A DNA stretch of 64,000 bases from Candidatus Dormiibacterota bacterium (GTDB lineage Bacteria; Chloroflexota; Dormibacteria; Aeolococcales; Aeolococcaceae): the NCBI GenBank assembly GCA_035652335.1, contig DASRDZ010000010.1:39594-103593 (forward strand), given 5' to 3'. Below, one piece after another: positions 6,101 through 45,930 of the stretch. The position numbers and the translations under genes are program-made. The notes beneath the pieces were generated by a model. It was not told where the DNA came from. It saw nothing but the letters and a program-made list of their open reading frames with translations, and ran no database searches. Within the stretch, counting starts at the first letter, position 1. Every line of letters starts with the position of its first letter.

Positions 6101-6858
6101 GGCTCGGTGTAGGCGCGCTCGATGCGCTGCCTGGCCACGTCGCACACCTGCCAGCGCAGCGCCGGCATCCGCGGGTCGTCGGACGGCGCGAAGGGGACCG
6201 CGGGCGGGTCGAAGCCCTTGACGGCGCGGAACTCCTCGGCGAAGCCCGGCGCCCCGGTGCCGAAGCACCACATCTCGTCCTCGAAGAGCGCGACGACGGG
6301 ATCGCCGTCGAGGTCGCCGGTCGACTCCGCCAGCATGCGGTTGACCGCGCCGTCCCTCGCCAGCGTCGCGACGGCGCGCACGTTGCCGAAGTCGAAGCCG
6401 TAGGGAAGCACGGTCGGCCCCGGCGCCGTCATCTCGCCGCGGAAGTCGGGATGCTCGCGCAGCAGCGCGGACATGTCGCGCATGCCGCCCGCCTGGTAGG
6501 GGCTGCCGGTGACGACGCCGAGCCCCAGCTCGCGACAGCGAAGCAGGATGCGCCGGTAGAGCGCGGTGCGCTCGGGCGTGCCCACCGGCGGGTCGTCGCC
6601 GACCGAGCCGCCGGCAGGGCCGAAGGCTGCCAGCGAGGCCGTCGCCACACCGCCGCAGCCCATCTCGACCAGGCGGTCGAGCTGCCAGCGCAGCCGCTCC
6701 TCGTCGAGCTTCTCGCCGCTCCACCACCACGCCGGGATGGGGCGCCACCTGTTCTCCGGGTTGCCCGCGAAGGCGCTGCGCAGCTCGGCGGGATCCGCGA
6801 TCGCGCCGGTCCAATCCATGCGCACAGATGCCCTGGGGGCGGCGTCGTCGACGATCAT
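3178..6858 (-). CDS. Large multidomain glycoside hydrolase (1226 aa; family uncertain, GH106/GH2-like TIM-barrel plus C-terminal beta-sandwich)
   Basis: The real start is the ATG at 6858-6856 (MIVDDAAPRASVRMDWTG...), not the GTG at 7356; the N-terminal 166 codons of the track ORF are Arg-rich junk. This ATG overlaps the stop of the upstream PhyH gene (ATGA), indicating coupling. Motifs include WWWSGEKLDEERLRWQLDRLVEMGCGGV and a C-terminal ...GENLIELEVTNTLAPL tail typical of GH C-terminal beta-sandwich domains. Confidence 0.7.
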   Translation of the reverse strand: MIVDDAAPRASVRMDWTGAIADPAELRSAFAGNPENRWRPIPAWWWSGEKLDEERLRWQLDRLVEMGCGGVATASLAAFGPAGGSVGDDPPVGTPERTALYRRILLRCRELGLGVVTGSPYQAGGMRDMSALLREHPDFRGEMTAPGPTVLPYGFDFGNVRAVATLARDGAVNRMLAESTGDLDGDPVVALFEDEMWCFGTGAPGFAEEFRAVKGFDPPAVPFAPSDDPRMPALRWQVCDVARQRIERAYTEPYARMVRERGLLAGYDQMSRMGTPIIGALAYVDHFRTMAWANAPGSDQMGDIRFHLSLATLTGASRVWLEGFHSQGQGLSLAHQAEALFEWAREGASLFLPHGGYYATRGMWWEWASPEMLWRQPFSRHYAPFAEAMARVMMAAAAGRHHPEVAVLHPLSTVWADTLGHMEWGESAQRANQVYVQLMGHHGSVRWDRPDEWATRSLLHDAGHDRMAVNEDWLDRVPDLPVVLPACRCLPLPVVDALIARAERGVPVVIVEPLPDWSAENGSGDAEFLTHVARLRSLATVVATPAEVPAALPPPRAAGAEVRVQWRRCGDLDLLLCTGEGELRVRGVGPRSAERWEFRDGSVHPLDARLDGDDLLLRLDGPFTIVALPPGEPQRVATPAPSQEIPLAVEWECRYLEWGENRWGDLRLPPNPGTPPVERRTFAWREGDDPAWRSAPVVPEDVEHPMRSLGMEERMSGDNGRVPPRERMLRDGWREVVSTYGPRATVDGVPFEYSERYGIEDVCLETLFGVRGKVETWKAVLPEDGARLVSYGHVPQACDTHLVIEGDAVITVWLDGTHLAGPLDNGVLAIPVHLDAGWHEVAVEVVPRHAPHLAYRGYSKPPPTALSWCFGEPYRRAPVGIWGGRMVHPDYRGAPQARRFRRRITLSEPAEVEVSSSAAATHHVEVPPHLEAGEHVVEAFAGETMTTPSFGCSLRLRLRSGAVLEIGSDERWETCAAGEPWVGAYGLSAGSPLSGWGAREQIERRHTLTDVAWLEGEEVVRGLVPQRWSDSPEPPPPSWFCFLAPPGARSMTLPVDGEVQAWLDGEEVRIDDGVLPLRGGARVAIRVQAQAGGRGAACFREHPVLTLGDGVIRTGISWHRQGLDSFAGVILHRATVRVERDMDAVLDLGEVRGSAGVRVNGEDLGALWCRPWRIEVPLRAGENLIELEVTNTLAPLVARGVPTIYGPEDQRVSGLLGRPRLLRYDH

Positions 6859-7634
6859 CGGCAGCCGCGGAAGGGCATGTGGTCGCCGCTGCGGAAGCGC
6901 GGCGGCGTGGCGTACACGTTGCGGTGCGGCGTCCCGTCGCCGCGGAGCAGGTAGCAGATCGGCCAGGGTTGCTCGCCGCGGATGCGCGTGGTGGTGGGGA
7001 TGTAACGGATGGTCAGCCCGCAGCGGCGGCGCGTCGAGCGGTTCGCGCGCGAGCCGTGCACGATGCTCGGGTGGTGCACCGAGACCCCGCCTCGCGGCAC
7101 CACCACGTCGACGGCGGCGGACTCGTCGACGTCGAGCGCGATCTCGGAGCTGAGCAGGTTCTCGATCGCCGTGACCTCGCGCCGCTCGTGCACCGGCCAG
7201 TCGTGGCTGCCGGGGATGACGCGCAGGCAGCCGTTCTCCGGCAGCGAGTCGTCGACGGCGAGCCAGAGCGAGACCACCTCCATCGGCTCCAGCTGCGGCC
7301 AGTAGGCGGCGTCCTGGTGCCAGAGCACGGGCTGGCCGTCGCCGGGTGGCTTGCACACGTACTGCGAGGCGAAGAGCGCGATGCCGTCGCCGATGAACTG
7401 CGCGGCGACGTCGAGGAGGCGGTCGTCGCCGACCAGGCGCACCCAGAAGGGGTCGTCGGCGAGCAGGTCGACGCCAAGCGTCTCCGGGCGCCGCCCCGGG
7501 TTGCGCGCGGTGAGCCAGTCGACATGGGCGGCCACCTCGTCGATGAGCTCAACGTCGAGGACGTCGGGGAACACCGCGTAGCCCTGGCGGGCGTAGTGCT
7601 GCAGCGGCGACTCGGCGGTCGCGGCGGTGCTCAT
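6855..7634 (-). CDS. Phytanoyl-CoA dioxygenase (PhyH) family Fe(II)/2-oxoglutarate oxygenase, paralog 1
   Basis: 259 aa from the ATG at 7634 (MSTAATAESPLQHYARQGYAVFPDVL...). Carries the HxD...H facial triad context (LWHQDAAYW ... VSVHHPSIVHGSRAN). Its TGA stop (6857-6855) overlaps the ATG of the downstream GH. The track ORF 6855..8045 has an Arg/Gly/His-rich junk N-terminus. Confidence 0.75.
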   Translation of the reverse strand: MSTAATAESPLQHYARQGYAVFPDVLDVELIDEVAAHVDWLTARNPGRRPETLGVDLLADDPFWVRLVGDDRLLDVAAQFIGDGIALFASQYVCKPPGDGQPVLWHQDAAYWPQLEPMEVVSLWLAVDDSLPENGCLRVIPGSHDWPVHERREVTAIENLLSSEIALDVDESAAVDVVVPRGGVSVHHPSIVHGSRANRSTRRRCGLTIRYIPTTTRIRGEQPWPICYLLRGDGTPHRNVYATPPRFRSGDHMPFRGCR

Positions 7635-7648
7635 CGCCGGCGGCCCGG

Positions 7649-8557
7649 TCAGCGGCGGAGGGTCTGCACGAAGCGGCGCAGACGCGACGCTGCCGCCGCG
7701 CCCGCCGCCCCGCCGCTCGGCGCCGGGGGAGCCGGAGCAGGGATGAGGCTGCCGGCGAAGACGAGTGCGCCCAGCGCGGTGAGCAGGGTGCCGGGGAGCA
7801 GGCTGCGCAGCGGCAGCCCGGCGGCGACCGCCCGGATCGGCGTCCTGCGCAGCGGCGCCGCCCTCACCGGTGCTCGCGGCGCCGCCGGGACGACCGGTGC
7901 GGTCTCGACGGTGGGGATGGTGACCACGGCGGGCACCGGCGGCGGCGTGGGCACCAAGAGGTCGGCGGGCGGCAGTGGCGGCAGCACGGTGTTGCCGTCG
8001 TCGGTGGTGAGGATGGTGAGGATCGCCGAGGCCTGGCGGACGCACGGCGTGAGCTGGTCACCGGGATTGGGCAGCGGCACGGGCGGCGCGGCCGGCGGCG
8101 AGGGAGGAGTCACCGGAAGCGCAGGGATCGTGGCCACCGGCGACGTCAAAGGAGAGGGGCAGGCGGTTGCAGCGGGTGAGCCTGCGCCGATGTCCTGATA
8201 CACGGTGACCACCGCATCGCCCGGCGGGTCGTCCTGGGGGATCTCGAAGTTGCACTGCACCGTCCCGGTGTTGCTGGCGGAGCCGACCGCGCACTTCTGC
8301 GCCGGCGCGCCCGGCGCGCAGGCGGGTGCCGGGCAGACCGTCAGCGTGTACCCGACGGAGGGGGCGAACCCCTGCCCGGAGACGCTGATGGTGGCGCCGG
8401 GCAGGCCGCTGGCCGGCGCGACCTGGACGGCCGTCGAGGCCGTCGGCGGGGGCGGCTGGGTCGCGGCGGCCGGGTGCGCGTCGAGCAGCGAGAGCACGCC
8501 GGCCAGCGCCATGGCGGCGGCGACCGCCCTGGCGGCGCGACGGGGAGCTGTGCCCAT
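7649..8557 (-). CDS. Secreted proline-rich membrane-anchored protein (N-terminal signal peptide, C-terminal TM helix)
   Basis: Start trimmed to the ATG at 8557 (MGTAPRRAARAVAAAMALAGVLSLLDAHPAAA is a signal peptide). It has a Cys-containing domain, then long PPxP tracts (TPPSPPAAPPVPLPNPG..PTPPPVPAVV), and a C-terminal hydrophobic anchor (LLTALGALVFAGSLIP). It is the first gene of the operon PhyH1 - GH - SMP30. Confidence 0.55.
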   Translation of the reverse strand: MGTAPRRAARAVAAAMALAGVLSLLDAHPAAATQPPPPTASTAVQVAPASGLPGATISVSGQGFAPSVGYTLTVCPAPACAPGAPAQKCAVGSASNTGTVQCNFEIPQDDPPGDAVVTVYQDIGAGSPAATACPSPLTSPVATIPALPVTPPSPPAAPPVPLPNPGDQLTPCVRQASAILTILTTDDGNTVLPPLPPADLLVPTPPPVPAVVTIPTVETAPVVPAAPRAPVRAAPLRRTPIRAVAAGLPLRSLLPGTLLTALGALVFAGSLIPAPAPPAPSGGAAGAAAASRLRRFVQTLRR

Positions 8558-8599
8558 TCCCAACCAACCTCTTCTTCCCGCCCTCCGGGCGACCCTTCG

Positions 8600-8685
8600 G
8601 CGGCCCGGCGGCGACTCTAGCATTGACCACCTCGTATGATTAGGTAAAAATTCTAACAATGCAAGGTGGAGGAGGAAGGAAGGCC
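8600..8685. promoter_or_regulatory. AT-rich divergent promoter region between the Pro-rich/PhyH/GH operon (-) and the ABC transporter operon (+)
   Basis: TTGACCACCTCGTATGATTAGGTAAAAATTCTAACAATG lies in a roughly 72% GC genome. It contains TATGAT and TAAAAAT-like -10 candidates, and a strong RBS block GGAGGAGGAAGG follows. Confidence 0.4.
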
Positions 8686-9201
8686 GTGCCTGCGCGGTCC
8701 GCTGCCCGCGGCGCACGCCTGGCCGCGCTGGCCGGGGCGCTCGCCGCGGCCGTCACCCTGAGCGGCTGCGGCGTCCGGCTGCAGGCCAACCACCTGGTGG
8801 TGCGCATCGACGCCGCCGGCATGCACCTCGTCAGGGTCAACGGCAGCGCGGCCCGCGCCGGCACGGCCATCCCCTCGGGAGAAACCGTCATCGACGTCAT
8901 CAACGCCGACCCGCAGCTCGCCCACACGGTGAGCCTGGTGCAGGGCGTCGCCACGCCGGGCGCTCTCCCCGAGCGCGTGCGCGCCGCCCGCCTGGTCAGC
9001 GACGACCCCGACCAGATCCTCGACATGACCGACTCGCTCGACCGCGACCAGGTCAAGGTCAGCGCCAGCGGCGGCATCATCGACGACCCCCAGACTGCGC
9101 AGTTCCACGAGTACCTCGCGCCCGGCCAGGCCTACCTCATCGTCGACGTGGCCCACGCGAGCCGCGACTGGCTCGCCATCACCCCGAGCGGCGCCGCATG
9201 A
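8686..9201 (+). CDS. Small lipoprotein of unknown function (lipobox LSGC)
   Basis: GTG at 8686 sits 10 nt after GGAGGAGGAAGG (8668-8680). Signal plus lipobox: MPARSAARGARLAALAGALAAAVTLSGC. The stop TGA 9199-9201 overlaps the ATG of the next gene (ATGA). The ATG at 8659 chosen by the track lies inside the RBS. Confidence 0.6.
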   Translation: MPARSAARGARLAALAGALAAAVTLSGCGVRLQANHLVVRIDAAGMHLVRVNGSAARAGTAIPSGETVIDVINADPQLAHTVSLVQGVATPGALPERVRAARLVSDDPDQILDMTDSLDRDQVKVSASGGIIDDPQTAQFHEYLAPGQAYLIVDVAHASRDWLAITPSGAA

Positions 9202-11537
9202 ACGCTCCACGGACCGCCACGCCGCAGGGCGTCCGTCCCACCGGGACGGCGGCCGCGCTTGGGCTGCGCCTGCGGGCGAGCTGGCGAGCCATGGCGGCGG
9301 CGCTGGCGTCGGAGGCGCGCCTCTGGGCGCCCGCCGCGGTGTGGGCGCGGCTGCGCGCCCTGCCGCTGCGGCGGAGGGTCGCCATCGCCGGCTGGATCGG
9401 CCTGGTGGTTGCCGTCATGATCGCCGGCAACCTGCCCTTCGGCAGCGACCACGGCATCCTCCTGCCGCGCAAGATCCCGCTCGGACTGGTGCTCCAGGGC
9501 GTGATCTTCGGTGCGGTGTACTCGCTGGTGGCCATCGGGCTGGTGCTGGTCTACCGCGCCGGCCGCTACATCAACTTCGCCCAGGGCGGCGCCGGCGCGG
9601 TGGGCGTGGTGCTCACCGCCAAGCTCATCCAGATCACCGGGATGAACTTCTTCCTCGCCGCGATCGTCGGCGTGGCGGCAGCCGGGCTGCTGGCGATGCT
9701 GGTGGAGGTGCTGGTCTTCCAGGGCCTGCGCATCTTCAGCTCGCCGCGCCTGGTCGCCACCGTGGCCACCCTCGGCGTGATGCAGCTCTTCGGCTTCGTC
9801 GAGTACATGGTGCGCGGCATCGAGGCGGACCACTACTACAACCTGCTGCCCATTCCCAAGGCGCCGCTCAACCTCTCGTTCAGCATCGGCATCGTCGACT
9901 TCAACGGCGCCCACGTCCTGGTGCTGCTGGTGGTGCCGGTGGTGGTGCTGGCGCTGACGCTGTTCCTGCGCCTCACCGACTTCGGCGCCGCCATCCAGGC
10001 CGCCGCTGAGAATGCGGACCGCGCCCGGCTGGTGGGCATCACGGTGCGCCGCATGCACACCTACGTGTGGGCGATCGCGGGCGTGCTCAGCGGGCTCACC
10101 GCCATCCTCGCCGCGCCCTTCTTCAACTTCTCCAACGGCGTCAGCTCAGGACCGTCGCTCTTCCTGCTCGCCCTGGCACCCGCGGTGCTGGGTGGCATGA
10201 ACAGCCTGGCGCAGACCTTCTTCGCCTCCCTCGGGCTCGGCGTGATGGAGTCCGTGGTGGGCTGGAACTACAACGTGGCGACGCTGGAGATGGTGCTCCT
10301 CGGCGTGCTGCTCGTCGGCCTGCTGCTGCGCCGCCGGTTGACCAGCCGCACCACCGAGGGCGAGGAGCGCTCCTTCGCGGTGGCCTCGCGGGTGCGCCAG
10401 TTCCCACGCGAGCTGGCCAGGTTGCCGCTGGTGCGCGCCTGGCGCGGGGGCTTCCGCGCTCTGCTGCTCGGGATGGCCGTCCTGCTGCCGCTCGGCTTCG
10501 ACCTGCAGCACCAGGTGGAGGCCGAGAACGTCCTCGTGTTCATCATCGCCGGCGTCTCGCTGGTCCTGCTCACCGGCTTCTCGGGGCAGATCTCCTTCGG
10601 GCAGTTCGGCATCGTCGGCTTCGGTGCGCTCTTCGGCGGCTGGCTGCTCACCAACGCGGGCCTCGACTACTGGACCTCGATGCTCGTCGTCACCGTCGCG
10701 GGCGGCATGGTGGCGGCGGTCATCGGCATCCCCGCACTGCGCATCCGCGGCCTCTTCCTCGGGGCGGTGACGCTCGCCTTCGCGCTCGCCTGCACCGACT
10801 ACTTCTTCTCCGACAGCGGCCACTTCCCCATCTTCACGCCGAGCGGGCCCGTGCACCGTCCCAGCCTGCCCTTCGGCTGGGACCTGGGCACCCAGCTCGA
10901 CAAGGCGGGCGACGAGCTGCACCTCTACTGGTTCTGCCTCGGCGTGCTGGTGCTGGTGATGCTGATGGTCCGCGCGCTGCGCAACAGCCGCTGGGGGCGC
11001 GCCTTCCAGGCGGTGCGCGACAACGAGCGCGCCGCCAACGCCTACGGCGTGGGCTCGATGCAGACCAAGCTGCTCGCCTTCGCCGCCTCGGGGATGATCG
11101 CCGCGCTGGCCGGCTACCTCTACATCACCGTGCAGCAGCAGGTGGCCCCGACGTCGTTCCCGGTGACCACCTCGCTGGTGCTCTTCAGCGCGGTCGTCAT
11201 CGGCGGGCTCGGCTCGCTCTCCGGCGCGGTCATCGGCGGCCTCTTCTTCGAGGGCGTGCAGTACTTCATCAAGGTGGACGCCATCCAGCTGCTGACCACG
11301 AGCCTCGGCTTGCTGGTGGTGCTGGCGTTCTTCCCGGGAGGGCTGGGCTCGCTGTTCTTCAACGTGCGCGACGCGCTGCTCCGCCGCTACGCGCTGCGCC
11401 GCCGCATCGTGGTGCCGTCGCTGCTCGCCGACCGTCGGGTCGAGGACGGCACGGCGCCGGATGCCGAGGCTGCGCTGGTGGGCAACGCGGTCACCGCCGC
11501 AGCACCGGTCGGCGTCGGCGTGGGAGGAGGACAGTGA
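9198..11537 (+). CDS. Fused LivH-LivM branched-chain-amino-acid-type ABC transporter permease (two permease domains, 779 aa)
   Basis: The first half carries a LivH-like signature (LVAIGLVLVYRAGRYINFAQGGAGAVG) and the second half a LivM-like one (LLTGFSGQISFGQFGIVGFGALFGGWLL). The ATG overlaps the upstream stop; the stop TGA 11535-11537 overlaps the GTG of the next gene. Confidence 0.85.
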   Translation: MNAPRTATPQGVRPTGTAAALGLRLRASWRAMAAALASEARLWAPAAVWARLRALPLRRRVAIAGWIGLVVAVMIAGNLPFGSDHGILLPRKIPLGLVLQGVIFGAVYSLVAIGLVLVYRAGRYINFAQGGAGAVGVVLTAKLIQITGMNFFLAAIVGVAAAGLLAMLVEVLVFQGLRIFSSPRLVATVATLGVMQLFGFVEYMVRGIEADHYYNLLPIPKAPLNLSFSIGIVDFNGAHVLVLLVVPVVVLALTLFLRLTDFGAAIQAAAENADRARLVGITVRRMHTYVWAIAGVLSGLTAILAAPFFNFSNGVSSGPSLFLLALAPAVLGGMNSLAQTFFASLGLGVMESVVGWNYNVATLEMVLLGVLLVGLLLRRRLTSRTTEGEERSFAVASRVRQFPRELARLPLVRAWRGGFRALLLGMAVLLPLGFDLQHQVEAENVLVFIIAGVSLVLLTGFSGQISFGQFGIVGFGALFGGWLLTNAGLDYWTSMLVVTVAGGMVAAVIGIPALRIRGLFLGAVTLAFALACTDYFFSDSGHFPIFTPSGPVHRPSLPFGWDLGTQLDKAGDELHLYWFCLGVLVLVMLMVRALRNSRWGRAFQAVRDNERAANAYGVGSMQTKLLAFAASGMIAALAGYLYITVQQQVAPTSFPVTTSLVLFSAVVIGGLGSLSGAVIGGLFFEGVQYFIKVDAIQLLTTSLGLLVVLAFFPGGLGSLFFNVRDALLRRYALRRRIVVPSLLADRRVEDGTAPDAEAALVGNAVTAAAPVGVGVGGGQ

Positions 11538-13573
11538 AGCTCCGCATCGCCATGCCCAAGCGGCGCCGCACGCGCGTCCTGCTCGCCGGCGCCCCGCTGT
11601 ACCCGATCATCGCGCTGGCCCTGGTCAGCGCCCTCGACCAGCTCGACCTCGCCGTCTTCGGCGTCGTCTTCCCGGAGATGAAGGCCGACCTGCACTTCTC
11701 GCTGCAGGACGTCTTCTGGATCGGCTTCCCGGCGTCGCTGCTCGGCTGGTGCGGCATCTTCGTGATCGGCGCCCTCGGTGACCGACTCCGCCGGGTGACG
11801 CTGTCCTGGATCCTGGCGGCCGTCTTCGGGCTCAGCTCGTTCCTCACCGGAGCGGTGATCAGCTGGCCGCAGCTGGTCCTGCTGCGCACCTTCAGCGTGC
11901 TGCCCAACTCCTACACGTCGCTGCACCACAGCCTGATCGCCGACATCTACCCTCCCGAGGGTCGCGGCTTCGCGATGGGCCTGTGGACCGCGCTGCGACC
12001 CGCCGGCTTCGTCGCCGGCAGCCTGCTCGCCGGCGTGCTGGCGGCGGTGGCCAACTGGCGGCTGGCCTTCCTGGCGCTGTCCATCCCCGTCATCGCCGCG
12101 GTGGCGATGCTGTTCCGGGTGCGGGAACCCGCGCGCGGCGCGCAGGAGTTCGAGGCCTCCACCGCCGCATTCGCCAGCCAGGTTCACCTCGGCCCCATCC
12201 AGAGCGTCAAGCTGCTGCTCAACATCCGGTCGTACCGGCGGCTGATGTGGGCATACGGCGTGATCGGCATGGGCGTGGGATCGCTGGTCCCCCTCTCCGC
12301 CTTCGTGTACCAGGGCGTGTTCGGCGTGGGACCGTTCGGACGGGGCCTCATCAACGCCGTCACGCAGCTCATGGTCTTCCTCAGCAGCGTGGCGGCGGGA
12401 GCCCTGCTGCAGCGCTTCTCGCCGCGCTTCATCACCCTCGCCAACGGCCTCCTCGTCTCGGCGGCCGGGCTCTCCTACCTGTTCCTCGCCCTCGCGCCGA
12501 CCGCGGGACTCGCCGTCGCGTCGCAGCTCATCGGCAGCGCCGCCTTCGGCATCTTCTCGGTCGGCACCTTCCTGCAGGTGGCGGCGACGACTCCGGCCAA
12601 CATCCGGACCATGGCCTTCGCCGCGGCGGGCATCTTCATGATCCTCGGCAACCTCTGGGGTCCGATCGCCCTGGGCATCGGCGCCAGCCAGGGCTACCGG
12701 GTGGCCCTGCTCGCCTCCTTCTGGTGGTACATCGTCGGCGGCCTGGTGGTCGCCGACGGCGCACGGTTCGTGAAGCGTGACCAGGAGCGCGCCAACACGG
12801 TGCTGCGGGCCGAGGCGGAGGCGCGCCGCCGCCGCGCCGCCGGCGAGAAGCTCGCCCTGCTCGACGTGCGCCACCTCGACGTGGCCTACGGCAACGTGCA
12901 GGTGCTCTTCGACGTCTCGATGCAGGTCACCGAGGGCGAGATCGTCGCCCTGCTGGGCACCAACGGCGCCGGCAAGTCGACGCTGCTGCGCACCGTCTCC
13001 GGCTTGATCCGTCCCACCGAGGGCGTGGTGCTCTTCGAGGGCTCGGACATCACCGGCCTCGACGCGGAGCTGATCACCAAGCGCGGCGTCATCCACGTGC
13101 CCGGTGGGCGCGGCGTGTTCCCCGGGCTCACGGTGCGCCGCAACCTGCGGCTCGGCACCTACCTCTACCGCTCCGACCCGCTCTTCCGCGAGGAGCGCAT
13201 GGAGTACGCCCTGTCCTTCTTCCCGCGGCTCGGCGAGCGGCTCGACCAGGCCGCAGGCAGCCTGAGCGGTGGCGAGCAGCAGATGCTCAACCTGGCCCAG
13301 GCGATGATGGTGCAGCCACGCCTCCTGCTCATCGACGAGCTGTCGCTGGGCCTGGCGCCGCGCATCGTGGAGGAGATCCTCCAGGTCGTCGAGAGCATCG
13401 CCGCCAGCGGCGTCACCATCGTGCTCGTCGAGCAGTCGGTGAACATCGCGCTCAGTCTCGCCTCGCGCGCCTACTTCATGGAGAAGGGCGAGGTGCGCTT
13501 CGAGGGCCGCAGCGCCGACCTCGCCGACCGCGACGACCTGGTCCGCTCCGTGTTCCTGGCGGGGGCGCGCTGA
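11534..13573 (+). CDS. Chimeric protein: N-terminal 12-TM MFS-type transporter domain (about 415 aa) fused to a C-terminal LivF-like ABC ATP-binding domain (about 255 aa)
   Basis: GTG at 11534 lies 6 nt after GGAGGAGGA and overlaps the upstream TGA. The MFS motif A is present (GALGDRLRRV) across many TM segments. The C-terminus has Walker A (LLGTNGAGKST), the ABC signature (LSGGEQQ) and Walker B (LLLIDELSLGL). The track ORF 10067..13573 upstream of 11534 is an Arg-rich artefact overlapping the permease. Confidence 0.8.
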   Translation: MKLRIAMPKRRRTRVLLAGAPLYPIIALALVSALDQLDLAVFGVVFPEMKADLHFSLQDVFWIGFPASLLGWCGIFVIGALGDRLRRVTLSWILAAVFGLSSFLTGAVISWPQLVLLRTFSVLPNSYTSLHHSLIADIYPPEGRGFAMGLWTALRPAGFVAGSLLAGVLAAVANWRLAFLALSIPVIAAVAMLFRVREPARGAQEFEASTAAFASQVHLGPIQSVKLLLNIRSYRRLMWAYGVIGMGVGSLVPLSAFVYQGVFGVGPFGRGLINAVTQLMVFLSSVAAGALLQRFSPRFITLANGLLVSAAGLSYLFLALAPTAGLAVASQLIGSAAFGIFSVGTFLQVAATTPANIRTMAFAAAGIFMILGNLWGPIALGIGASQGYRVALLASFWWYIVGGLVVADGARFVKRDQERANTVLRAEAEARRRRAAGEKLALLDVRHLDVAYGNVQVLFDVSMQVTEGEIVALLGTNGAGKSTLLRTVSGLIRPTEGVVLFEGSDITGLDAELITKRGVIHVPGGRGVFPGLTVRRNLRLGTYLYRSDPLFREERMEYALSFFPRLGERLDQAAGSLSGGEQQMLNLAQAMMVQPRLLLIDELSLGLAPRIVEEILQVVESIAASGVTIVLVEQSVNIALSLASRAYFMEKGEVRFEGRSADLADRDDLVRSVFLAGAR

Positions 13574-17584: not shown

Positions 17585-17625
17585 TGTAGAGGCCGCGCCG
17601 CCGACTTCGGTAGGATTCCGAAATA
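17585..17625. promoter_or_regulatory. Divergent PhyH2 / beta-lactamase-like intergenic region with imperfect palindrome TTCGGTAGGATTCCGAA
   Basis: A 41-bp gap separates two divergent starts. The TTCGG ... CCGAA arms form an inverted repeat, followed by the AT-rich run AAATAATG. Confidence 0.3.
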
Positions 17626-20364: not shown

Positions 20365-20387
20365 GGCCGGCGCGGCGGCGGTGCTCC

Positions 20388-27211: not shown

Positions 27212-27272
27212 CTCGTCCCTCCTTGAGTAAGTAAGGACAGTTTACCAAACCCGAAGGGCCCGCGCCAGTGTC

Positions 27273-31160: not shown

Positions 31161-31227
31161 CCTAGCACCGGCCTAGTTAGTACAAATTATTTCCTTTCTG
31201 GGCCCGATTGGGGTAGAATCCCAGGCC
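31161..31227. promoter_or_regulatory. Divergent ROK-regulator / MR-dehydratase intergenic region with AT-rich box and a TAGAAT -10
   Basis: CTAGTTAGTACAAATTATTTCCTTTCTGG ... GGGTAGAATCCCAGGCC-ATG. The TAGAAT lies 9 nt before the ATG at 31228, and an AT-rich box (a likely operator) sits beside it. Confidence 0.4.
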
Positions 31228-34224: not shown

Positions 34225-34265
34225 CTCCCTCAACTCTACCAGGTTTCGTTCGAAAATCTTACAAA

Positions 34266-35009: not shown

Positions 35010-35106
35010 TGTGCTCTCCTCATCGCGGCATTAGTATGCATAATTGCCGAACCCGGCCGAGGGCCCACCATGGTGCCGCGGCGGCCGGGACGGAAGGAGC
35101 CAGCCG
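35010..35106. promoter_or_regulatory. Divergent SDR / MR2 intergenic region with AT-rich box
   Basis: CATTAGTATGCATAATTGCCGAACC contains the palindromic core ATGCAT and a TGcATAAT extended -10-like element. Both flanking genes have strong RBSs. Confidence 0.4.
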
Positions 35107-40004: not shown

Positions 40005-40101
40005 CGGGGCTGCATCCTCCCAACCGACCCCCTGCGCCGAATTAGTCTAGAATCATAACGAACCCGGCGGAGGGCGGTCGAAGGAGCGTACCCGGGAGCG
40101 A
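40005..40101. promoter_or_regulatory. Divergent GH31 / GH38 intergenic region with AT-rich box
   Basis: GAATTAGTCTAGAATCATAACGAACC, with TAGAAT and CATAAC hexamers and a central TCTAGA palindrome. Confidence 0.35.
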
Positions 40102-43100
40102 ATGAGCACGTCGGAGGTCCCCACCCGCGCCGGCGCGGGGGAGCGGGTTGTGTGGCGGATCGGCCGGCTCGACGGGGGCGCCGAGCAGTTCGCAGCGGGG
40201 CCGCGTTTCGACGCGGGCTGCGACGAGCTGCGCTTCCGGGTCGGGGTCGACGACGAGAGCAGCGCCTGGCCGTCGTACCAGCCCGGGCCGCTGATGGCCT
40301 GGACCGGCTACCGCTCGAAGCGCGTCGCCGTCGACTTCCATCTCGACGCGCCGCCGTCCACCGCGTGCGAGCTGCGCCTGCGCCTGCTCACCGTCACCGG
40401 GCCGCCGCCGGACGTCGACGTCTCCGTCAACGGCCGCCGCGGGCGCTGGTTCCTCGACCCGGTGCGGCGCGACCGCACCGACCTGTCCAGCCCCTCGCAC
40501 ATCGGCGGCTGGGACCTGCTGCGCGTGCCGGTCGACTCGGCGTGGCTGCAGCGCGGAGAGAACCGCATCGTCGTCGCCACCGTGCAGGACGACGCCGTCG
40601 ATCCCGCCGAGCTGGGGCCGATGCATCCCGAGTACCCGTACTTCTGGGGCAGCGTGCTGCGCCACGGCGGCGTCGAGCTGGTGGAGACGGGCGAGGCCAT
40701 GCCGGCGCGGTCCGTGCGCGTGTCACCGACACCGCTCTTCGTGCGGCGCGACGGAGCGTTCTGCGAGCTGGTCGACGTCGTCGTCACCGCGCCCGCTGGA
40801 GTCGCGGCCGGGGCGGTGTCACTCACGGTGGCGGGAGCGGCGCCGGTGTCCGCCGCACTCGATCCCGCCGGACGCGACACCGGCCAGGTGCGCGTGCGCC
40901 TCGCCGTGCCCGACCTCGGGGACACGCCATGCGATGCCGAGATCAGCGTCGCGCTCGACGGCGCCCCGATCCGCGAGCAGATCACCCTGCGCCCCTGCCG
41001 CAAATGGACGGTGCACCTGCTGCCCCACGTCCACCTCGACGTCGGCTACACCGACGTGCAGGCCAAGGTCTTCGAGGTGCACAGCCGCAACCTCGACCGC
41101 GTCCTCTCCATCCTCGGCGACGTTCCCGAGTACCGCTACTCCGTCGACGGCGGCTTCGTCCTCGAGCAGTTCGCCCGGTCGCGCAGCGCCGAGTCGCGCG
41201 AGTCCGTCCTCGCCGCGCTGCGCGACGGGTCGCTGAGCGTCAACGCCTTCATGGCGCTGTTCCTCACCGGCATCGCCTCGCTGGAGGAGTGCTACCGCGC
41301 CGGCTACGGAACCGCTGCGCTCCGCCGTGAGCACGGCGTGCCCGTCGACTACGCGAACCTCACCGACGTCCCGTCGTACAGCTCCGCGATGCCGTCGGTG
41401 CTCCGCGCGATGGGCGTCGACGCCTTCGCCGGCATCCAGAACCACGGCCGCGCCGCCACCGAGGACGGCGACGTGCTCCATCTGGTCTCGCCGTTCCTCT
41501 GGGAGGGACCTGACGGCGCGCAGGTGCTCAGCTTCTTCGCCGACTGCTACGCGCAGCTCCGCTACATCTGCGGCCATCCCACCACGGTGACGGGCAGCGC
41601 GCTGAGCCTCACCCGCCTGCTCGGCCGCTACGAGCGCGACGACTACCTGCCCCACGACTTCCCCCTGGTGGGCATCTACAGCGACAACGAGGACCTCGGC
41701 GACGGCGAGGCCGGCTTCGTGGCGCGCTGGAACGCCGCCTACGAGTACCCGCGGCTGCGCTACAGCACCCTGCGCGACTACTTCGCCGCGGTGCGTCCGC
41801 TGCGCGACCGCCTTCCCGTGGTGCGCGGCGACGGGGGCAGCTTCTGGGAGGACGGCGTCGGCTCCTCGGCCTCGCTGACGGCGGCGTACCGCCGCGCCCA
41901 GGCGCTGCTGCCCGTGGCCGAGGCGTGCAGCGCATTGGTGCAGACCGTCGACCCCTCGCTGCGCGCGGCCGTCGACGATCTCGACCGCGCCTGGCAGGGC
42001 CTGCTGATCGGATGCGAGCACACCTGGACCTGGATGCACGCGCACGAGCATCCGCACGGCGAGCAGACCGACGACCAGCTCGGCTGGAAGCGCGCCCAGG
42101 TCGACACGGCGCTGCGCGTCGCCGTCGACGAGACGCGCCGCGCCATGAGCCAGCTCGGCGAGCTGGTGCAGACGGACGGTCCCTCGCTGCTGCTCTTCAA
42201 CGCCCTGGGATGGCGGCGCGACGGCGTCGTCGAGGTGGAGCTTCCCCGGCGGCTGCACGTGATCGGCGAGGATGGCGCGCCGGTGCCGTCCGAGGTGACG
42301 TGGTGCGACACCGGCCTCCAGCGGGTGCGCCTGCGCAGCACCGTCCCCGGCCTCGGCTACCGCCGCCTCACTCTCGCCGAGCAGCCGGATCCCGACGGCG
42401 TCTCCACGGCGGGGCTGGCGCCACTCGACGGCGACCTGGTCGAGACGCGACGCCATCGCCTGCGCGTCGACCGCGGCACCGGACGCATCGTCTCGCTCTG
42501 GTCCACGACGCTGCAGCGCGAGCTGCTCGACTGCGAGGCCACCGGCGTCGCCCTCGCCGAGGTGCTCTACGTGCGCAGCGAGAACGCCGCGCGCGACAGC
42601 ATTCACGAGTTCTCGCGGCACCTTCCTGCGCCGTCGCTCACCGTCACGCCCGCCGCGATGCGCGTTGCCGGCGTGCGCCGCACGCCCTGGGGCGCGGTGG
42701 TCGCGCTCCGCGGTGAGGCGCCGAGCCTGCCGCGGGTCGAGGTGGACGTCGAGCTGCACGACGACGAGGAGCGCGTCGACGTCACCGTGCGCCTCGACAA
42801 GGAGGCGGTGCACGCCACCGAATCGGTCTACGTCGCCTTCCCCTTCGCCGTCCCGGACGCGACGCTGCGCTACGACCGCCAGCAGGGCTGGGTCGATCCC
42901 GCCGCCGACCACGCGCCGGGCGCCTGCAACGAGTGGTTCACCACGCAGCACGCGGTGGGCCTCGACGGCGGCGGCGCCGCGGTGACGTGGTGCTCGGCGG
43001 ACGCGCCGCTCTTCACCGTGGGCGACGTGGTGCGCGGTCGCTGGCCGCGCCATCACCAGCCCGGATCCTCGACCCTGCTCTCCTGGGTGATGAACAACCA

Positions 43101-43560
43101 CTGGTGGACCAACTACGCACCCGCGCAGTCCGGTGAGGTGACGCTGCGCTACTCCTTCACCGCCGCGCAGCGCTGGGACGCCGCCGCGGCCGCGCGTTTC
43201 GGGCGCGAGGCGCGCACGCCGCTCGCCGTCTCGACGGTCACCTGGCTCGACAAGATGGACACCGGCCCGCGCCGGCTCAGCCAGGCCGCGGCGTCGCTCC
43301 TCGACGTCGAGGCGCCGCCCAATCTCACCGTCACCGTCGCCCAGGCGCGCGCCGGGGACGGCCTGCTGCTGCGCCTCCAGGAGACCGCCGGCATCGCAGC
43401 GTCCGCCTCCGTCCGCCACCCCTTCGCGACACGCACCACCCCGCGCGTCGAGCGCTGCACCGCGCTGGAGGACGGCCTCGCCCCGCTCGACGTCGTCGAC
43501 GGCCGGGTGCGCGTCGAGGTCGCGCCGTACGAGATCGTCAGCATGAGGATGTCCCGATGA
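40102..43560 (+). CDS. GH38-like alpha-mannosidase family protein with an extra roughly 290-aa N-terminal domain
   Basis: 1152 aa. The GH38 N-terminal metal-site region is recognisable (VHLLPHVHLDVGYTD, like HSHxDxGW). The stop overlaps the sulfatase ATG (ATGA). Confidence 0.7.
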   Translation: MSTSEVPTRAGAGERVVWRIGRLDGGAEQFAAGPRFDAGCDELRFRVGVDDESSAWPSYQPGPLMAWTGYRSKRVAVDFHLDAPPSTACELRLRLLTVTGPPPDVDVSVNGRRGRWFLDPVRRDRTDLSSPSHIGGWDLLRVPVDSAWLQRGENRIVVATVQDDAVDPAELGPMHPEYPYFWGSVLRHGGVELVETGEAMPARSVRVSPTPLFVRRDGAFCELVDVVVTAPAGVAAGAVSLTVAGAAPVSAALDPAGRDTGQVRVRLAVPDLGDTPCDAEISVALDGAPIREQITLRPCRKWTVHLLPHVHLDVGYTDVQAKVFEVHSRNLDRVLSILGDVPEYRYSVDGGFVLEQFARSRSAESRESVLAALRDGSLSVNAFMALFLTGIASLEECYRAGYGTAALRREHGVPVDYANLTDVPSYSSAMPSVLRAMGVDAFAGIQNHGRAATEDGDVLHLVSPFLWEGPDGAQVLSFFADCYAQLRYICGHPTTVTGSALSLTRLLGRYERDDYLPHDFPLVGIYSDNEDLGDGEAGFVARWNAAYEYPRLRYSTLRDYFAAVRPLRDRLPVVRGDGGSFWEDGVGSSASLTAAYRRAQALLPVAEACSALVQTVDPSLRAAVDDLDRAWQGLLIGCEHTWTWMHAHEHPHGEQTDDQLGWKRAQVDTALRVAVDETRRAMSQLGELVQTDGPSLLLFNALGWRRDGVVEVELPRRLHVIGEDGAPVPSEVTWCDTGLQRVRLRSTVPGLGYRRLTLAEQPDPDGVSTAGLAPLDGDLVETRRHRLRVDRGTGRIVSLWSTTLQRELLDCEATGVALAEVLYVRSENAARDSIHEFSRHLPAPSLTVTPAAMRVAGVRRTPWGAVVALRGEAPSLPRVEVDVELHDDEERVDVTVRLDKEAVHATESVYVAFPFAVPDATLRYDRQQGWVDPAADHAPGACNEWFTTQHAVGLDGGGAAVTWCSADAPLFTVGDVVRGRWPRHHQPGSSTLLSWVMNNHWWTNYAPAQSGEVTLRYSFTAAQRWDAAAAARFGREARTPLAVSTVTWLDKMDTGPRRLSQAAASLLDVEAPPNLTVTVAQARAGDGLLLRLQETAGIAASASVRHPFATRTTPRVERCTALEDGLAPLDVVDGRVRVEVAPYEIVSMRMSR

Positions 43561-45014
43561 GCCGCACCAACCGTCCGCCCAACATCGTCCTGGTGCTCCT
43601 CGACCAGCTGCGCGCCGACGTCTGCGGCACCTACGGCAGCGCCATCTGCCGCACGCCGCACCTCGACCGCATCGCCGCCCAGGGGATCCGCTTCGACCGC
43701 GCCTACACCCCGATCGGCATCTGCAGCCCGGCGCGCGCCTCGATGCTGAGCGGCACGTACCCGCACCGCCACGGTGTGCTCAACAACGTGCACGGGCCCG
43801 ATGCGTTGCAGGTCGACCTCCGCCCGGGAACGCCGGTCTACCCCGCGCTGCTGCGCGACGCGGGCTACGCCACCTCGTACACCGGCAAGTGGCACGTCGA
43901 CATCGAGGACGGCCCGGCCAGCAAGGGCTTCACCCATGTCGGGGCGTGCGACGACTACATGCCCGCGCTCGCCGAGCAGCGCCGGCGGCTTGGCCTGCCG
44001 CACACCGATCCCATCGCCTTCGATCGCAGCACGACGTACCCGCCGCTGTCCGCGCGCGCCACGCGCACGGTGCCCGGCTTCCCGCTGGAGGGTCGCGAGA
44101 CGCAGCCCGTCGAGGGCACGCCGCAGGGCCTGTTCCTGGAGAACGCCCTCGACGCCATGGAGGCGATGCGCCGCGGGGACGCGCCGTTCCTGCTGGTGCT
44201 CTCCTTCCTCGGGCCGCACTGGCCCTACTCCGTCCCCGAGCCGTGGTGGTCGATGTACGACCCGGCCGCGATCCCGCCCTGGCCCAACTGGGAGGACGAC
44301 TTCACCGGCAAGCCCGGCGCCAACCGTCGCGGCCTGCAGCACTTCGGCGTCGAGGGCTGGACCTGGCAGGACTGGGCCCCCACCGTCGCCGCCTACCTCG
44401 GCTCGGTGACGATGCACGACGAGCTGATCGGCCGCCTCGTCGCCGCGCTCGACGCCGGCGGCGCCGCCGAGGACACGCTGCTCATCGTCACCGCCGACCA
44501 CGGCGACCTCTGCGGCAGCCACCGCCAGTTCAACAAGGGCCCGCTGATGTACGAGGAGGTCTACCGCATCCCCCTGGTGGCGCGCTGGCCCGGCGTCATC
44601 GCGCCGCAGTCGGCGAGCGACGCCTACGCCAGCTCACTCGACCTCTTCGCCACCATGCTCGACGCCGCCGGCGTGGCATTGCCCGACGCGCCGCTCGACT
44701 CCCGCAGCCTGCTCCCGCTGTTGCGCGGTGAGACCCCGCAGGGCTGGCGCGACTCCTGGGTCTCCGAGTTCCACGGGGACGAGTTCGGTCTGTATTCGCA
44801 GCGCATGCTGGTGCATGGGCGCCACAAGCTCGTCTACAACCCGCACGACGTCGACGAGCTCTACGACCTGGTCGCCGATCCCCACGAGCTGCGCAACCTC
44901 AGCGCCGAGCCGTCCCTGGCCGCGCTGCGCGACGACCTCGAGTCGCGCCTCGCCCAGTGGATGGACGCCACCGGCGACCCGCTGGGCAAGTACGCCTACA
45001 ACCTCCTCGGCTGA
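43557..45014 (+). CDS. Cys-type sulfatase (formylglycine-dependent, C-x-P-x-R)
   Basis: Signature LLDQLRADVCGTYGS ... CSPARASMLSGTYPHRHG, with the C-x-P-x-R formylglycine motif and the metal-binding D/D/N context. Coupled to GH38. Confidence 0.9.
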   Translation: MSRTNRPPNIVLVLLDQLRADVCGTYGSAICRTPHLDRIAAQGIRFDRAYTPIGICSPARASMLSGTYPHRHGVLNNVHGPDALQVDLRPGTPVYPALLRDAGYATSYTGKWHVDIEDGPASKGFTHVGACDDYMPALAEQRRRLGLPHTDPIAFDRSTTYPPLSARATRTVPGFPLEGRETQPVEGTPQGLFLENALDAMEAMRRGDAPFLLVLSFLGPHWPYSVPEPWWSMYDPAAIPPWPNWEDDFTGKPGANRRGLQHFGVEGWTWQDWAPTVAAYLGSVTMHDELIGRLVAALDAGGAAEDTLLIVTADHGDLCGSHRQFNKGPLMYEEVYRIPLVARWPGVIAPQSASDAYASSLDLFATMLDAAGVALPDAPLDSRSLLPLLRGETPQGWRDSWVSEFHGDEFGLYSQRMLVHGRHKLVYNPHDVDELYDLVADPHELRNLSAEPSLAALRDDLESRLAQWMDATGDPLGKYAYNLLG

Positions 45015-45021
45015 GCCGGCG

Positions 45022-45930
45022 TCAGGCGGTCGCCGCGGCGGCCTGCCGCGGCGCGCCGTCGCGCGCAGCCAGCGCCTCGCGGTACGCCGACATGTCGAGC
45101 TTCGGGTAGCGCGCCTGCACGCCGTCGACGGTGCGCTGCGTCCAGTACGGGTGTCCCGGCTTGGGGAAGCCGATCACGGTGAGCTGCTCGACGCCGGCCT
45201 GCTCGACGAACTGCCGCATCTCAGCGCTCAACCCCTCGTGCGGCCAGGCGCGCCAACCCATCCACTCCAGGCCCGCGCCGCGGAAGACGTTGTGGAAGGT
45301 GAGCCGGATGCCATGGGTGGCGAGCAGCCGCGAGCCGCGGTGGAAGGTCTGCATGTCGTAGAGCATGATCGTGCCGGCTTCGACCGCAACCGCCTGCTCC
45401 GCCTCGTACATCTCCGGCACGTCCTCGCGCGGCGGCGCCACCGGCACCAGCGGCCGCTCACGCGTCACCGTGCGCGACACCACCTTGGTCGGCCCCAGCT
45501 CGACGGTGACGTCCTCCAGGTAGAGGATCGAGGGCATCTGCCGGAAGCCGTCCTCGTCACTGGGGTAGAGGAGGCTGTTGTTCTGGTAGTCGACGTGGTG
45601 CGGCTGCTCCCAGTCGCCCCTCCCGGCGTACTTCGCCCAGAGCAGCGACTGGGTGAGGAAGACGTCCTCGGTGCCGACGATGCGGCGCGCCGCGTCGACG
45701 AGGTCGGGGCCGGTGCTGATGTTGTTGAGGGCGTCGTCCCTGAAGGGGAACTCCCAGTGGATGGGGAGGTTCTGGTAGCGGTGCGGCGCCGCGTAGTACT
45801 CCTCGGCGGTGGGGTAGTAGCGGTAGGCCACCTCGCGTGCCGCGGCCAGCTCGTCGGGGCTGAGGAAGCCCGGGATGAGCACGTAGCCGTGCTCCCGCCA
45901 GTGGGCGACCTGCTCGTCGGTGATGCGCAC
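45022..45930 (-). CDS. PhyH-family Fe(II)/2OG dioxygenase, paralog 4
   Basis: The best start is the GTG at 45930 (VRITDEQVAHWREHGYVL...), 8 nt after AAGGAG; the alternative ATG at 45993 (MVHNSYQ...) has no RBS. HHVDYQNN ... FHRGSRLL metal triad context. Convergent with the sulfatase gene. Confidence 0.75.
   Translation of the reverse strand: MRITDEQVAHWREHGYVLIPGFLSPDELAAAREVAYRYYPTAEEYYAAPHRYQNLPIHWEFPFRDDALNNISTGPDLVDAARRIVGTEDVFLTQSLLWAKYAGRGDWEQPHHVDYQNNSLLYPSDEDGFRQMPSILYLEDVTVELGPTKVVSRTVTRERPLVPVAPPREDVPEMYEAEQAVAVEAGTIMLYDMQTFHRGSRLLATHGIRLTFHNVFRGAGLEWMGWRAWPHEGLSAEMRQFVEQAGVEQLTVIGFPKPGHPYWTQRTVDGVQARYPKLDMSAYREALAARDGAPRQAAAATA

Follow-up and report, generated by a model that had tools for sequence, protein, structure and literature searches.

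We analysed a 64-kb stretch (the window) of contig DASRDZ010000010.1, from a metagenome-assembled genome (MAG) of an uncultured soil-type bacterium (Candidatus Dormiibacterota; guanine-plus-cytosine [GC] content ~73%), in which four genes from the family of phytanoyl-CoA dioxygenases (PhyH; PF05721) lie among sugar-degrading genes. The four proteins, here called PhyH1–PhyH4, belong to a known family and are unassigned in specificity; what appears to be new is the conserved and co-regulated tie of several PhyH subfamilies to cytoplasmic glycoside catabolism and to an unusual transporter. In our judgement, it is highly probable that they represent a genuine conserved glycoside-catabolic oxygenase module. 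That coordinates 1–46000 form a single island, co-regulated and cytoplasmic, for the breakdown of glycosides or oligosaccharides that are imported and heavily decorated, with the four PhyH proteins as accessory oxygenases, we regard as roughly an even bet.

Genes were called by third-position GC since high GC content yields many false open reading frames. The calls agree with the PhyH coordinates of an initial annotation of the window (except that the start of PhyH3 is moved to 20391) and with an independent gene call from ENA. The four genes are:

6855–7634, minus strand: PhyH1, 259 amino acids (aa); HQD at residues 106–108, H193, and R204; PF05721 at 118.4 bits
16790–17584 (or with the start at 17572), minus strand: PhyH2, 264 aa; HRD at residues 125–127; PF05721 at 25.4 bits; the most divergent of the four
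19450–20391, minus strand: PhyH3, 313 aa; HQD at residues 145–147; PF05721 at 64.6 bits
45022–45930, minus strand: PhyH4, 302 aa; HVD at residues 112–114, H197, and R209; PF05721 at 51.8 bits

The initial annotation had placed four PhyH genes among sugar-degrading genes, and this is borne out: all four exceed the PF05721 gathering cutoff of 22 bits (PhyH2 marginally) and have an intact site for iron(II) and 2-oxoglutarate (2OG). The length range of 259–323 aa that it gave is to be replaced by the lengths listed here; a 99%-identical relative of PhyH3 is likewise called at 313 aa. In the four-way alignment, the HxD motif, the distal histidine, and an arginine 11–12 residues after that histidine are invariant columns, and the columns of H106, D108, H193, and R204 (PhyH1 numbering) are also invariant in the family alignments of PhyH1 and PhyH4. 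An arginine in that position, ~11–12 residues past the distal histidine, binds the C5 carboxylate of 2OG. As these alignments show, all four proteins keep the residues of a predicted Fe(II)/2OG catalytic site. AlphaFold2 models of PhyH1 (pLDDT 92.7) and PhyH4 (pLDDT 94.7) have a double-stranded beta-helix fold like that of solved PhyH-family structures, and Foldseek relates them, each time at probability 1.00, to ThoJ, SyrB2, SnoN, and PHYHD1 (PhyH1) and to ColD, SnoN, and proline hydroxylase H11 (PhyH4). Profile scans of the window's other called genes found no further 2OG oxygenase.

To call the four genes clearly related paralogs, as had been done initially, overstates their kinship. Identity among the four subfamilies is 23–30%, pairwise BLASTP is mostly non-significant (best E-value 1e-6), and 481 pooled homologs fall into separate sets, the best cross-family match reaching 25% identity (E 3e-16) and the other pairs 1e-6 to 1e-9. 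Judged from these comparisons, the four are anciently separated PF05721 subfamilies, with no recent paralogs among them. The PhyH1 family is large and tightly conserved (~60% identity from Paenibacillus and Cohnella to Actinopolymorpha, Armatimonadota, and Dormibacteria); the PhyH3 and PhyH4 families are rarer and mostly metagenomic, and the PhyH2 family is a rare one, to which 303 of 1.84 billion cluster representatives match at E<=1e-3. All four proteins fall short of every curated NCBIfam cutoff, the best names for PhyH1 and PhyH3 being ectoine hydroxylase (TIGR02408; 40.5 against a cutoff of 336.5) and PtlH (NF045813; 57 against a cutoff of 550). Kinship with a named enzyme such as ectoine hydroxylase, combined with a lack of linkage to carbohydrate-active enzymes (CAZymes) in relatives, was the outcome that the initial annotation held to speak against its proposal. 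The data run the other way: scores are far below the cutoffs, and relatives of PhyH1, PhyH3, and PhyH4 again lie near glycoside hydrolases (GHs), sulfatases, sugar transporters, and further PhyH genes.

Gene overlaps show that PhyH1 and PhyH3 are translationally coupled to GH-type genes. PhyH1 is the second gene of a minus-strand operon that reads, in order, 302-aa gene, PhyH1, 1226-aa gene, and lactonase gene; PhyH3 lies in an operon with a GH51 gene. These and the other immediate partners are:

7649–8557, minus strand: 302-aa protein, first gene of the PhyH1 operon, with a gap of 15 nucleotides (nt) to PhyH1
3178–6858, minus strand: giant protein of 1226 aa with a C-terminal jelly-roll like that of GH106; its start overlaps the PhyH1 stop by 4 nt
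2235–3131, minus strand: SMP-30/gluconolactonase (SGL; PF08450 at 269.5 bits), 46 nt downstream of the giant gene
20388–21851, minus strand: GH51-type alpha-L-arabinofuranosidase (PF06964 at 64.3 bits), upstream gene of the PhyH3 operon, without signal peptide
21952–22869, plus strand: BD-FAE-type carbohydrate esterase (PF20434 at 126 bits), a recurrent partner of PhyH clusters
43557–45014, plus strand: cytoplasmic sulfatase (SGSH-like; PF00884 at 181.5 bits), without signal peptide

The overlap between PhyH1 and the giant gene is also seen in the independent gene call, which upholds the coupling described in the initial annotation. The word hydrolase used there for the giant protein is unproven: it has no Pfam match even at E<=1 and no signal peptide, and only its C-terminal ~70 aa resemble GH106 of the BT0986 type. 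An attempt to place the protein in a GH family gave no assignment, the GH106 likeness being confined to this tail. The sole similarity of the 302-aa protein is a weak, sub-cutoff one to a neocarzinostatin/enediyne-chromoprotein-like immunoglobulin (Ig) domain (E ~4e-4), and this Ig-like part might be a small-molecule-binding domain. PhyH3 had been placed 24 nt after the GH51 gene, a distance that holds for a start at 20364; with the in-frame ATG at 20391, there is a 4-nt overlap with the GH51 stop, and with either start the two genes form one operon. This operon is divergent from that of the BD-FAE esterase, after which a tight operon (22882–26125, plus strand) encodes an APH-family kinase, an enolase that looks like a second copy, and an FAA-family hydrolase; an enolase in a sugar-catabolic operon suggests an unusual phospho-sugar-acid route. 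The other two PhyH genes are monocistronic. PhyH2 is flanked by the last gene of the transporter operon and by a beta-lactamase-fold gene. PhyH4 and the sulfatase converge, as had been described, with 7 nt between them, and their adjacency is neither co-transcription nor an operon. Divergent from PhyH4 is a gene for an FGLLP-motif membrane protein (46264–47940, plus strand; NCBIfam NF041501, 214 bits).

A shared promoter motif ties all four PhyH genes to the GH, esterase, transporter, and sugar-acid operons and suggests one co-regulated island. Though the genome is GC-rich, the divergent promoter between PhyH1 and the transporter operon holds an AT-rich element. When a Gibbs sampler was applied to ten promoter regions of the island, it returned an 18-mer, approximately GKnnnnRATYCTWACnAA and partly palindromic, that is present in all ten training regions, including those upstream of the four PhyH transcription units and of a gene for a ROK-family protein. 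Copies are:

8643–8660, plus strand: GGTAAAAATTCTAACAAT, in the PhyH1/transporter divergent region; leave-one-out score 15.8, p ~0.003
17606–17623, minus strand: palindromic (TTCGG..CCGAA), at 22 nt upstream of PhyH2; weakest of the copies, with a leave-one-out score of 8.5 and p ~0.007
21914–21931, plus strand: between the GH51–PhyH3 and BD-FAE operons; leave-one-out score 12.7
27228–27245: by genes for a zinc-dependent alcohol dehydrogenase (Zn-ADH), a GH63-like protein, and an aldo-keto reductase (AKR)
31177–31194: 17 nt upstream of the ROK gene start
34248–34265 and 35031–35048: two copies at sugar-acid genes
40045–40062: between the divergent GH31 and GH38N genes
45973–45990, minus strand: GTTCATAATTCTTACCAA, 43 nt upstream of PhyH4; leave-one-out score 15.1

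Leave-one-out matrices recover every region at p<=0.01, a figure that is optimistic in that the sites were chosen jointly, and of seven intergenic regions taken as controls, from within operons or from outside the island, none did better than shuffles. When both strands of the window (128 kb in total) were scanned with the score of the third-weakest site as threshold, nine matches were returned, all of them intergenic within the island and none in coding sequence; the copy at 34248 lies in a short gap outside the training set. The motif also occurs in other genomes, for which labels such as L007 and L087 denote genomic contexts from comparative scans. In L092, a copy scoring 16.0 stands 37 nt upstream of an operon of a PhyH4 ortholog and a ROK gene, and in L007, two copies occupy the promoter that heads an operon of three PhyH genes. 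Against a background of ~1 match per 145 kb of high-GC sequence, the post hoc chance of these finds is ~1e-3 (L092) and ~2e-6 (L007). From the distribution of these sites, we infer one regulon, with the ROK protein (29904–31160) as the most likely regulator; one motif copy precedes the ROK gene itself, and another precedes the PhyH4–ROK operon of L092. Past the left edge of the window, the source contig (L001, 12274–16559) carries an 807-aa heparinase II/III-like gene, cut at the window start, and before it a GH116 gene, with a motif copy between the two, and the island therefore extends past the window.

The same partners recur around PhyH genes elsewhere. The comparative set comprises ~30 contexts picked from long contigs, some of them with our own gene calls, and a scan of GTDB genomes for the PhyH1 pattern returned 80 loci. 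Tandem clustering of three PhyH subfamilies with the same partner genes in another phylum is shown by L007, a MAG of Ilumatobacter (Actinomycetota). Here, orthologs of PhyH4 (45% identity), PhyH1 (63%), and PhyH3 (46%) stand head to tail (9054–11661), in a cluster that also contains orthologs of the giant protein (51%), of BD-FAE, of the permease, of the fusion of a major facilitator superfamily (MFS) and an ATP-binding cassette (ABC) domain described below, and of the 480-aa unknown protein, together with SGL, an alcohol dehydrogenase (ADH), and a GFO/IDH/MocA oxidoreductase. In L087, a second Dormibacteria genome, an ortholog of the GH38N protein (45%) lies directly upstream of three tandem PhyH genes flanked by two BD-FAE orthologs, GH38, an AraC regulator, and the same transporter. 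Four PhyH genes in L093 accompany GH78, a GH2-like and a GH63-like protein, pairs of GFO and AP_endonuc_2 genes, ROK, and RraA; one stretch there reads PhyH3-like gene, ADH (63% identical to that of the window), and MGH1-like GH. L090 and L095 have PhyH genes in operons with the small protein and the MFS–ABC transporter, neighboured by GH106 (above cutoff), GH78, GH127, a sulfatase, and Peripla_BP_6. Shorter associations are those of a PhyH1 ortholog with GH38 (Cohnella and L008), of a sulfatase followed by a PhyH3-like gene (L089), of GH63-like, G6PD, and PhyH4-like genes in that order (L096), of a sulfatase near a PhyH4-like gene (L094, which also has a BD-FAE gene), and of a ROK gene, 66% identical to that of the window, directly following a PhyH4 ortholog (L092).

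Counted by family, GH or sulfatase genes lie within 10 kb in all seven PhyH3-family contexts and in five of the six PhyH4-family contexts, the exception being L092; the six PhyH3 relatives that were looked at all adjoin a GH or sulfatase gene. For the PhyH1 family, ~10 of 19 contexts have a carbohydrate link nearby, be it GH38 (Cohnella, L008, and L087), CUT1 sugar transporters, or esterases, and another PhyH gene is adjacent in 5 of the 19. All-against-all clustering of neighbours at 17 PhyH1-ortholog loci gave little conserved synteny beyond sugar ABC permeases; the pattern is visible only after family-level annotation of the neighbours. No prior account linking PhyH with polysaccharide utilization loci (PULs), CAZymes, or sulfatases was found in the searchable literature.

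Several further contexts are of interest in their own right. In marine MAGs of Pseudomonadota and SAR324 (L024, L046, L048, and L050, at ~18–20.5 kb, and L080, at 4047–6455), PhyH genes of more distant kinship have GH38 genes within ~8 kb. Four of these loci look like related genomes and are hence not independent; the link between PhyH and GH38 may extend beyond the PhyH1 subfamily. In an Acidimicrobiales MAG (L012, 6201–10445), a PfkB kinase, an SIS-domain protein, a PhyH1 ortholog, and a GFO/IDH/MocA oxidoreductase follow one another, and the resemblance of the kinase–SIS pair to fructosamine (Frl-type) catabolism hints at a glycated or amino-sugar substrate for the PhyH1 subfamily. Pairs of GFO/IDH/MocA and AP_endonuc_2 (xylose-isomerase-like TIM barrel) genes share operons with PhyH3- or PhyH4-type genes in L089 (6757–10900), L093 (8152–10891), and L091 (12678–17956). 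Such pairs serve in oxidative (3-keto) glycoside cleavage and in the catabolism of inositol or rhizopine.

The remaining features of the island are:

8686–14415, plus strand: transporter operon, divergent from the PhyH1 operon
14975–16750, plus strand: unknown protein that closes the transporter operon, of 591 aa if counted from the first ATG, with no Pfam family and a homolog in L007
26162–27211, minus strand: Zn-ADH
27273–28961, minus strand: MGH1/GH63-like hydrolase
28962–29852, minus strand: AKR
29904–31160, minus strand: ROK-family protein (winged helix-turn-helix plus ROK), candidate regulator
31228–36300: sugar-acid genes (two MR_MLE dehydratases, RraA-like aldolase, ADH, and short-chain dehydrogenase/reductase [SDR])
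37980–40004, minus strand: GH31, divergent from the GH38N protein
40102–43560, plus strand: GH38N protein with a part resembling a carbohydrate-binding module, 1152 aa

The transporter operon encodes a 171-aa lipoprotein (lipobox LSGC), a fused double BPD_transp_2 permease of 748 aa (9291–11537), an MFS_1–ABC_tran fusion (11534–13573), and a LivG-like ATPase (13573–14415). In the fusion protein, an MFS_1 domain with 12 transmembrane segments is joined to a LivG/F-type ATPase; we know of no described MFS–ABC fusion of such a kind. Related importers, with a small lipoprotein of 151–171 aa, adjoin PhyH genes or share an operon with them in L007 (1–3734), L087 (17327–20804), L090 (10900–16229), and L095 (284–7491), and Peripla_BP_6 binding proteins go with the transporter in L090 and L095.

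Across the island, the sugar-acid set consists of two MR_MLE proteins, an RraA-like aldolase, an FAA hydrolase (best match, below cutoff, 2,4-didehydro-3-deoxy-L-rhamnonate hydrolase), an SDR, an AKR, and two Zn-ADHs. Genes of esterase or peptidase fold are BD-FAE, two S15/CocE-type hydrolases, a beta-lactamase-fold protein, and an alpha/beta hydrolase. The region had been characterized as CAZyme-rich, and GH51, GH31, GH38N, the GH63-like protein, BD-FAE, the sulfatase, the ABC transporter, and ROK agree with this, whereas the many esterase/peptidase-fold genes and the amino-acid-type transporter do not. Given these genes and the Peripla_BP_6-type transporter, the island's substrates could be small glycosides with decorations instead of polysaccharides. 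The locus has the makings of a CAZyme cluster, with several GH and carbohydrate esterase genes, a transporter, a regulator, and a shared promoter motif, and is not a PUL of the SusC/D type. No signal peptide was predicted on the GHs, the sulfatase, or the PhyH proteins of the window, and the enzymes are therefore probably cytoplasmic and act on imported glycosides; a predicted chemistry that is cytoplasmic and works on imported material is the most likely one. Near the operons, no riboswitch or other Rfam family was found; the only Rfam matches are two tRNA-Ser genes (53513–53600, minus strand, and 54760–54854, plus strand; anticodons TGA and GCT), which flank an LPG_synthase_C gene a few kb past the last carbohydrate genes. 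Just outside the motif-marked island, an 813-aa fusion of a GT4 glycosyltransferase and a GH130 (beta-mannoside phosphorylase-type) protein is encoded at 49007–51448 on the plus strand.

In the scheme that we propose, the ROK-family repressor would bind the shared motif, and substrates would enter via the BPD_transp_2/MFS–ABC transporter. Esterases, sulfatase, and GHs would strip the hydrolysable decorations and linkages, and each PhyH protein, using O2 and 2OG, would hydroxylate a C–H bond beyond the reach of the hydrolases. The likeliest target would be the methyl carbon of an O-methyl sugar, whose hydroxylation would give an unstable hemiacetal and then a free hydroxyl and formaldehyde. The freed sugars (probably of rhamnose, fucose, arabinose, or mannose types) would pass to the dehydrogenase, lactonase, dehydratase, and aldolase/hydrolase genes of the island. 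O-dealkylation, that is, the oxidative removal of a methyl ether or other non-hydrolysable decoration, is put forward by analogy and tentatively as the specific chemistry, and we would not be surprised to see it replaced.

Two known systems bear on this chemistry. Free nucleosides lose their 2'-O-methyl group, released as formaldehyde, through the action of certain PF05721 enzymes (PMC12709175): FJS, from a metagenome, PHYHD1 of humans, and homologs in plants, fungi, viruses, and bacteria. Likeness to the window's proteins lies in the common Pfam family, the same HxD...H...R site, and a role in catabolic salvage in which a sugar hydroxyl is freed of its methyl ether; PHYHD1 is, moreover, among the best characterized matches of PhyH1 and PhyH3, with which it shares 32–35% identity over part of their length. 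PhyH1 is 35% identical to human PHYHD1 over 141 aa (E 3e-16) and 21% identical to FJS, and PhyH3 scores E 2e-9, the reference sequences being optical-character-recognition copies from the paper's supplement. Unlike in nucleoside salvage, no nucleoside-metabolism genes lie near the PhyH genes of the window, whose partners are GHs, esterases, a sulfatase, and sugar-acid enzymes. Membership of PhyH1–PhyH4 in the FJS/PHYHD1 clade was considered and rejected on account of low identity over partial lengths, with PhyH2 and PhyH4 unmatched.

The second system is that of marine porphyran degraders, in which a P450 demethylates 6-O-methyl-galactose and an adjacent conserved Zn-ADH, not a formaldehyde dehydrogenase, is required for growth (PMC6292453, PMC10033563). 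There, too, an oxygenase in a glycan-catabolic cluster removes a non-hydrolysable methyl ether, with a non-formaldehyde Zn-ADH alongside, as is seen by PhyH3-type genes, next to which a Zn-ADH of polyol-dehydrogenase type recurs. The porphyran enzyme differs in being a haem P450 with redox partners rather than an Fe/2OG enzyme, in belonging to marine Bacteroidota PULs with SusC/D, and in being one oxygenase where the present system has several subfamilies. We also considered the recurrent Zn-ADHs as formaldehyde dehydrogenases and dismissed this, as they are of polyol or inosose dehydrogenase types.

Solved structures point to biosynthetic relatives. The best solved match of PhyH1 is ThoJ (6zyk/6zyl; 23% identity, E 4.6e-20 by sequence) and that of PhyH4 is ColD (8xp6/8xpf; 30% identity, E 5.6e-33); the nearest for PhyH3 are PtlH and SnoN, and PhyH2 has none. 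A literature search on PDB entries 8XP6 and 6ZYK returned no match, the names ColD and ThoJ being those given by the fold search. Both are apparently natural-product enzymes (ColD was solved with collinodins), so that their substrates are not transferable. A biosynthetic gene cluster was rejected as an explanation of the window, which has no polyketide synthase, nonribosomal peptide synthetase, or nucleoside diphosphate-sugar genes, and the PhyH genes of the window have no ectoine or pentalenolactone genes near them.

Among the alternatives, the PhyH proteins might act on the aglycone of small-molecule glycosides (phenolic or flavonoid rhamnosides, esterified aromatic acids), with its hydroxylation or O-demethylation as their part and no more than its release as that of the GHs and esterases. 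This would fit the HAAT-like transporter with its Peripla_BP_6 binding proteins (the HAAT family carries amino acids and aromatic acids), the many esterase-fold genes of the island, the recurrence of GH78 rhamnosidases, the AMP-binding ligase after a PhyH3-like gene in L095, and the polyketide or peptide scaffolds on which the nearest solved relatives work. We nonetheless consider it unlikely, with no aromatic ring-cleavage or beta-ketoadipate genes among the window genes, sugar-acid enzymes as the downstream genes, and direct coupling to GH38, GH51, and GH106-like genes. A reaction on the ring of the sugar or cyclitol, be it hydroxylation, epimerization, or oxidation (for example, 6-deoxy-sugar hydroxylation, SnoN-like epimerization, or KanJ-like oxidative deamination), seems to us less likely still. 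SnoK, SnoN, EvdO1, EvdO2, and HygX are PhyH-fold enzymes that act on carbons of sugar residues and are found among the sequence and fold matches, but they are biosynthetic and only 16–24% identical to the window's proteins, and we know of no catabolic precedent. GFO/IDH/MocA and AP_endonuc_2 pairs and inosose-dehydrogenase-like ADHs beside PhyH3- and PhyH4-type genes would suit ring chemistry, as would the deoxy-sugar pathway genes, except that the island already encodes a complete deoxy-sugar route that needs no oxidative hydroxylation.

Co-location could also be meaningless, PhyH genes being numerous in soil lineages and each having as its substrate some unrelated small molecule, for instance an osmolyte, amino acid, phosphonate, or lipid. 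PhyH1 orthologs of Actinopolymorpha and several other genomes do stand among housekeeping or unrelated genes, and PhyH2 and PhyH4 are monocistronic. Four PF05721 genes among ~55 genes exceed chance at any plausible count that one might assume for the whole genome. Coincidence is rendered improbable by operon coupling (two 4-nt overlaps with GH-type genes), by the re-clustering of subfamily-specific orthologs with the same partners in another phylum, and by the motif common to the island and kept upstream of PhyH operons in other genomes; the tallies of seven in seven PhyH3-family and five in six PhyH4-family contexts likewise speak against it. Least credible, and in our view very improbable, is oxidative desulfation of the AtsK type, brought up in the initial annotation, in which the sulfate-bearing carbon would be hydroxylated to release sulfate and a carbonyl. 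AtsK shares with the present proteins Fe/2OG chemistry and nearby sulfatase genes (by PhyH4 in the window, by PhyH3-like genes in L089 and L095, and near a PhyH4-like gene in L094); it is an enzyme of the TauD family, a different Pfam family, and no TauD-family domain was found among the scanned window proteins, which leaves that suggestion with no family-level support. Sulfatases of the classical kind are there already, the one in the window is convergent with PhyH4, and the partners of PhyH1 are GH38, GH106-like proteins, and esterases rather than sulfatases.

The preferred account, a glycoside-catabolic island with PhyH proteins as accessory oxygenases, has its own difficulties, which should be set against the evidence given for it. 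The oxidative step in glycan catabolism that was proposed at the outset agrees with the conserved GH, sulfatase, and transporter contexts and with the shared motif, whereas the chemistry offered with it (demethylation or deoxy-sugar hydroxylation) is conjectural; no adjacent formaldehyde dehydrogenase or detoxification gene, which would support demethylation, was found. Overall identity to FJS and PHYHD1 is 21–35% over partial lengths, with PhyH2 and PhyH4 non-significant, and the nearest solved relatives (ThoJ, ColD, PtlH, and SnoN) are natural-product tailoring enzymes. The transporter is of the branched-chain-amino-acid (Peripla_BP_6) type, atypical for sugars. About half of the PhyH1-ortholog contexts (L005/L085, L009, L010, L011, and L015) have no carbohydrate neighbour, the PhyH4 ortholog of L092 has ROK as its only relevant neighbour, the comparative contexts are those of PhyH1, PhyH3, and PhyH4, and, coming from long contigs, they are a non-random choice. 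Finally, the motif stems from a sampler run on a small set, its external matches were judged post hoc, and the assignment of the regulator is by inference.

Methylated and ether-decorated sugars block glycoside hydrolases. Examples are 2-O-methyl-fucose and 2-O-methyl-xylose in rhamnogalacturonan-II, 4-O-methyl-glucuronate in xylan, 3-O-methyl-rhamnose and 3-O-methyl-mannose in microbial and lower-plant glycans, and methyl-inositols. To our knowledge, the only well-described sugar demethylase in glycan catabolism is the marine P450. We advance, as a speculative proposal that may well fail, that several PF05721 subfamilies constitute a new class of cytoplasmic auxiliary enzymes of glycan catabolism, an oxidative deprotection toolkit of Dormibacterota, Actinomycetota, Bacillota, and other soil phyla that would free imported oligosaccharides of methyl ethers or other non-hydrolysable groups, under a conserved operator and fed by a new MFS–ABC-fusion transporter. 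The idea is directly testable, given conserved partners, a defined motif, and four soluble proteins of 260–310 aa. If true, an Fe/2OG solution in abundant uncultured soil phyla would be a new auxiliary activity in carbohydrate turnover, and a function would be at hand for a large pool of genes that are now named only ‘phytanoyl-CoA dioxygenase family protein’.

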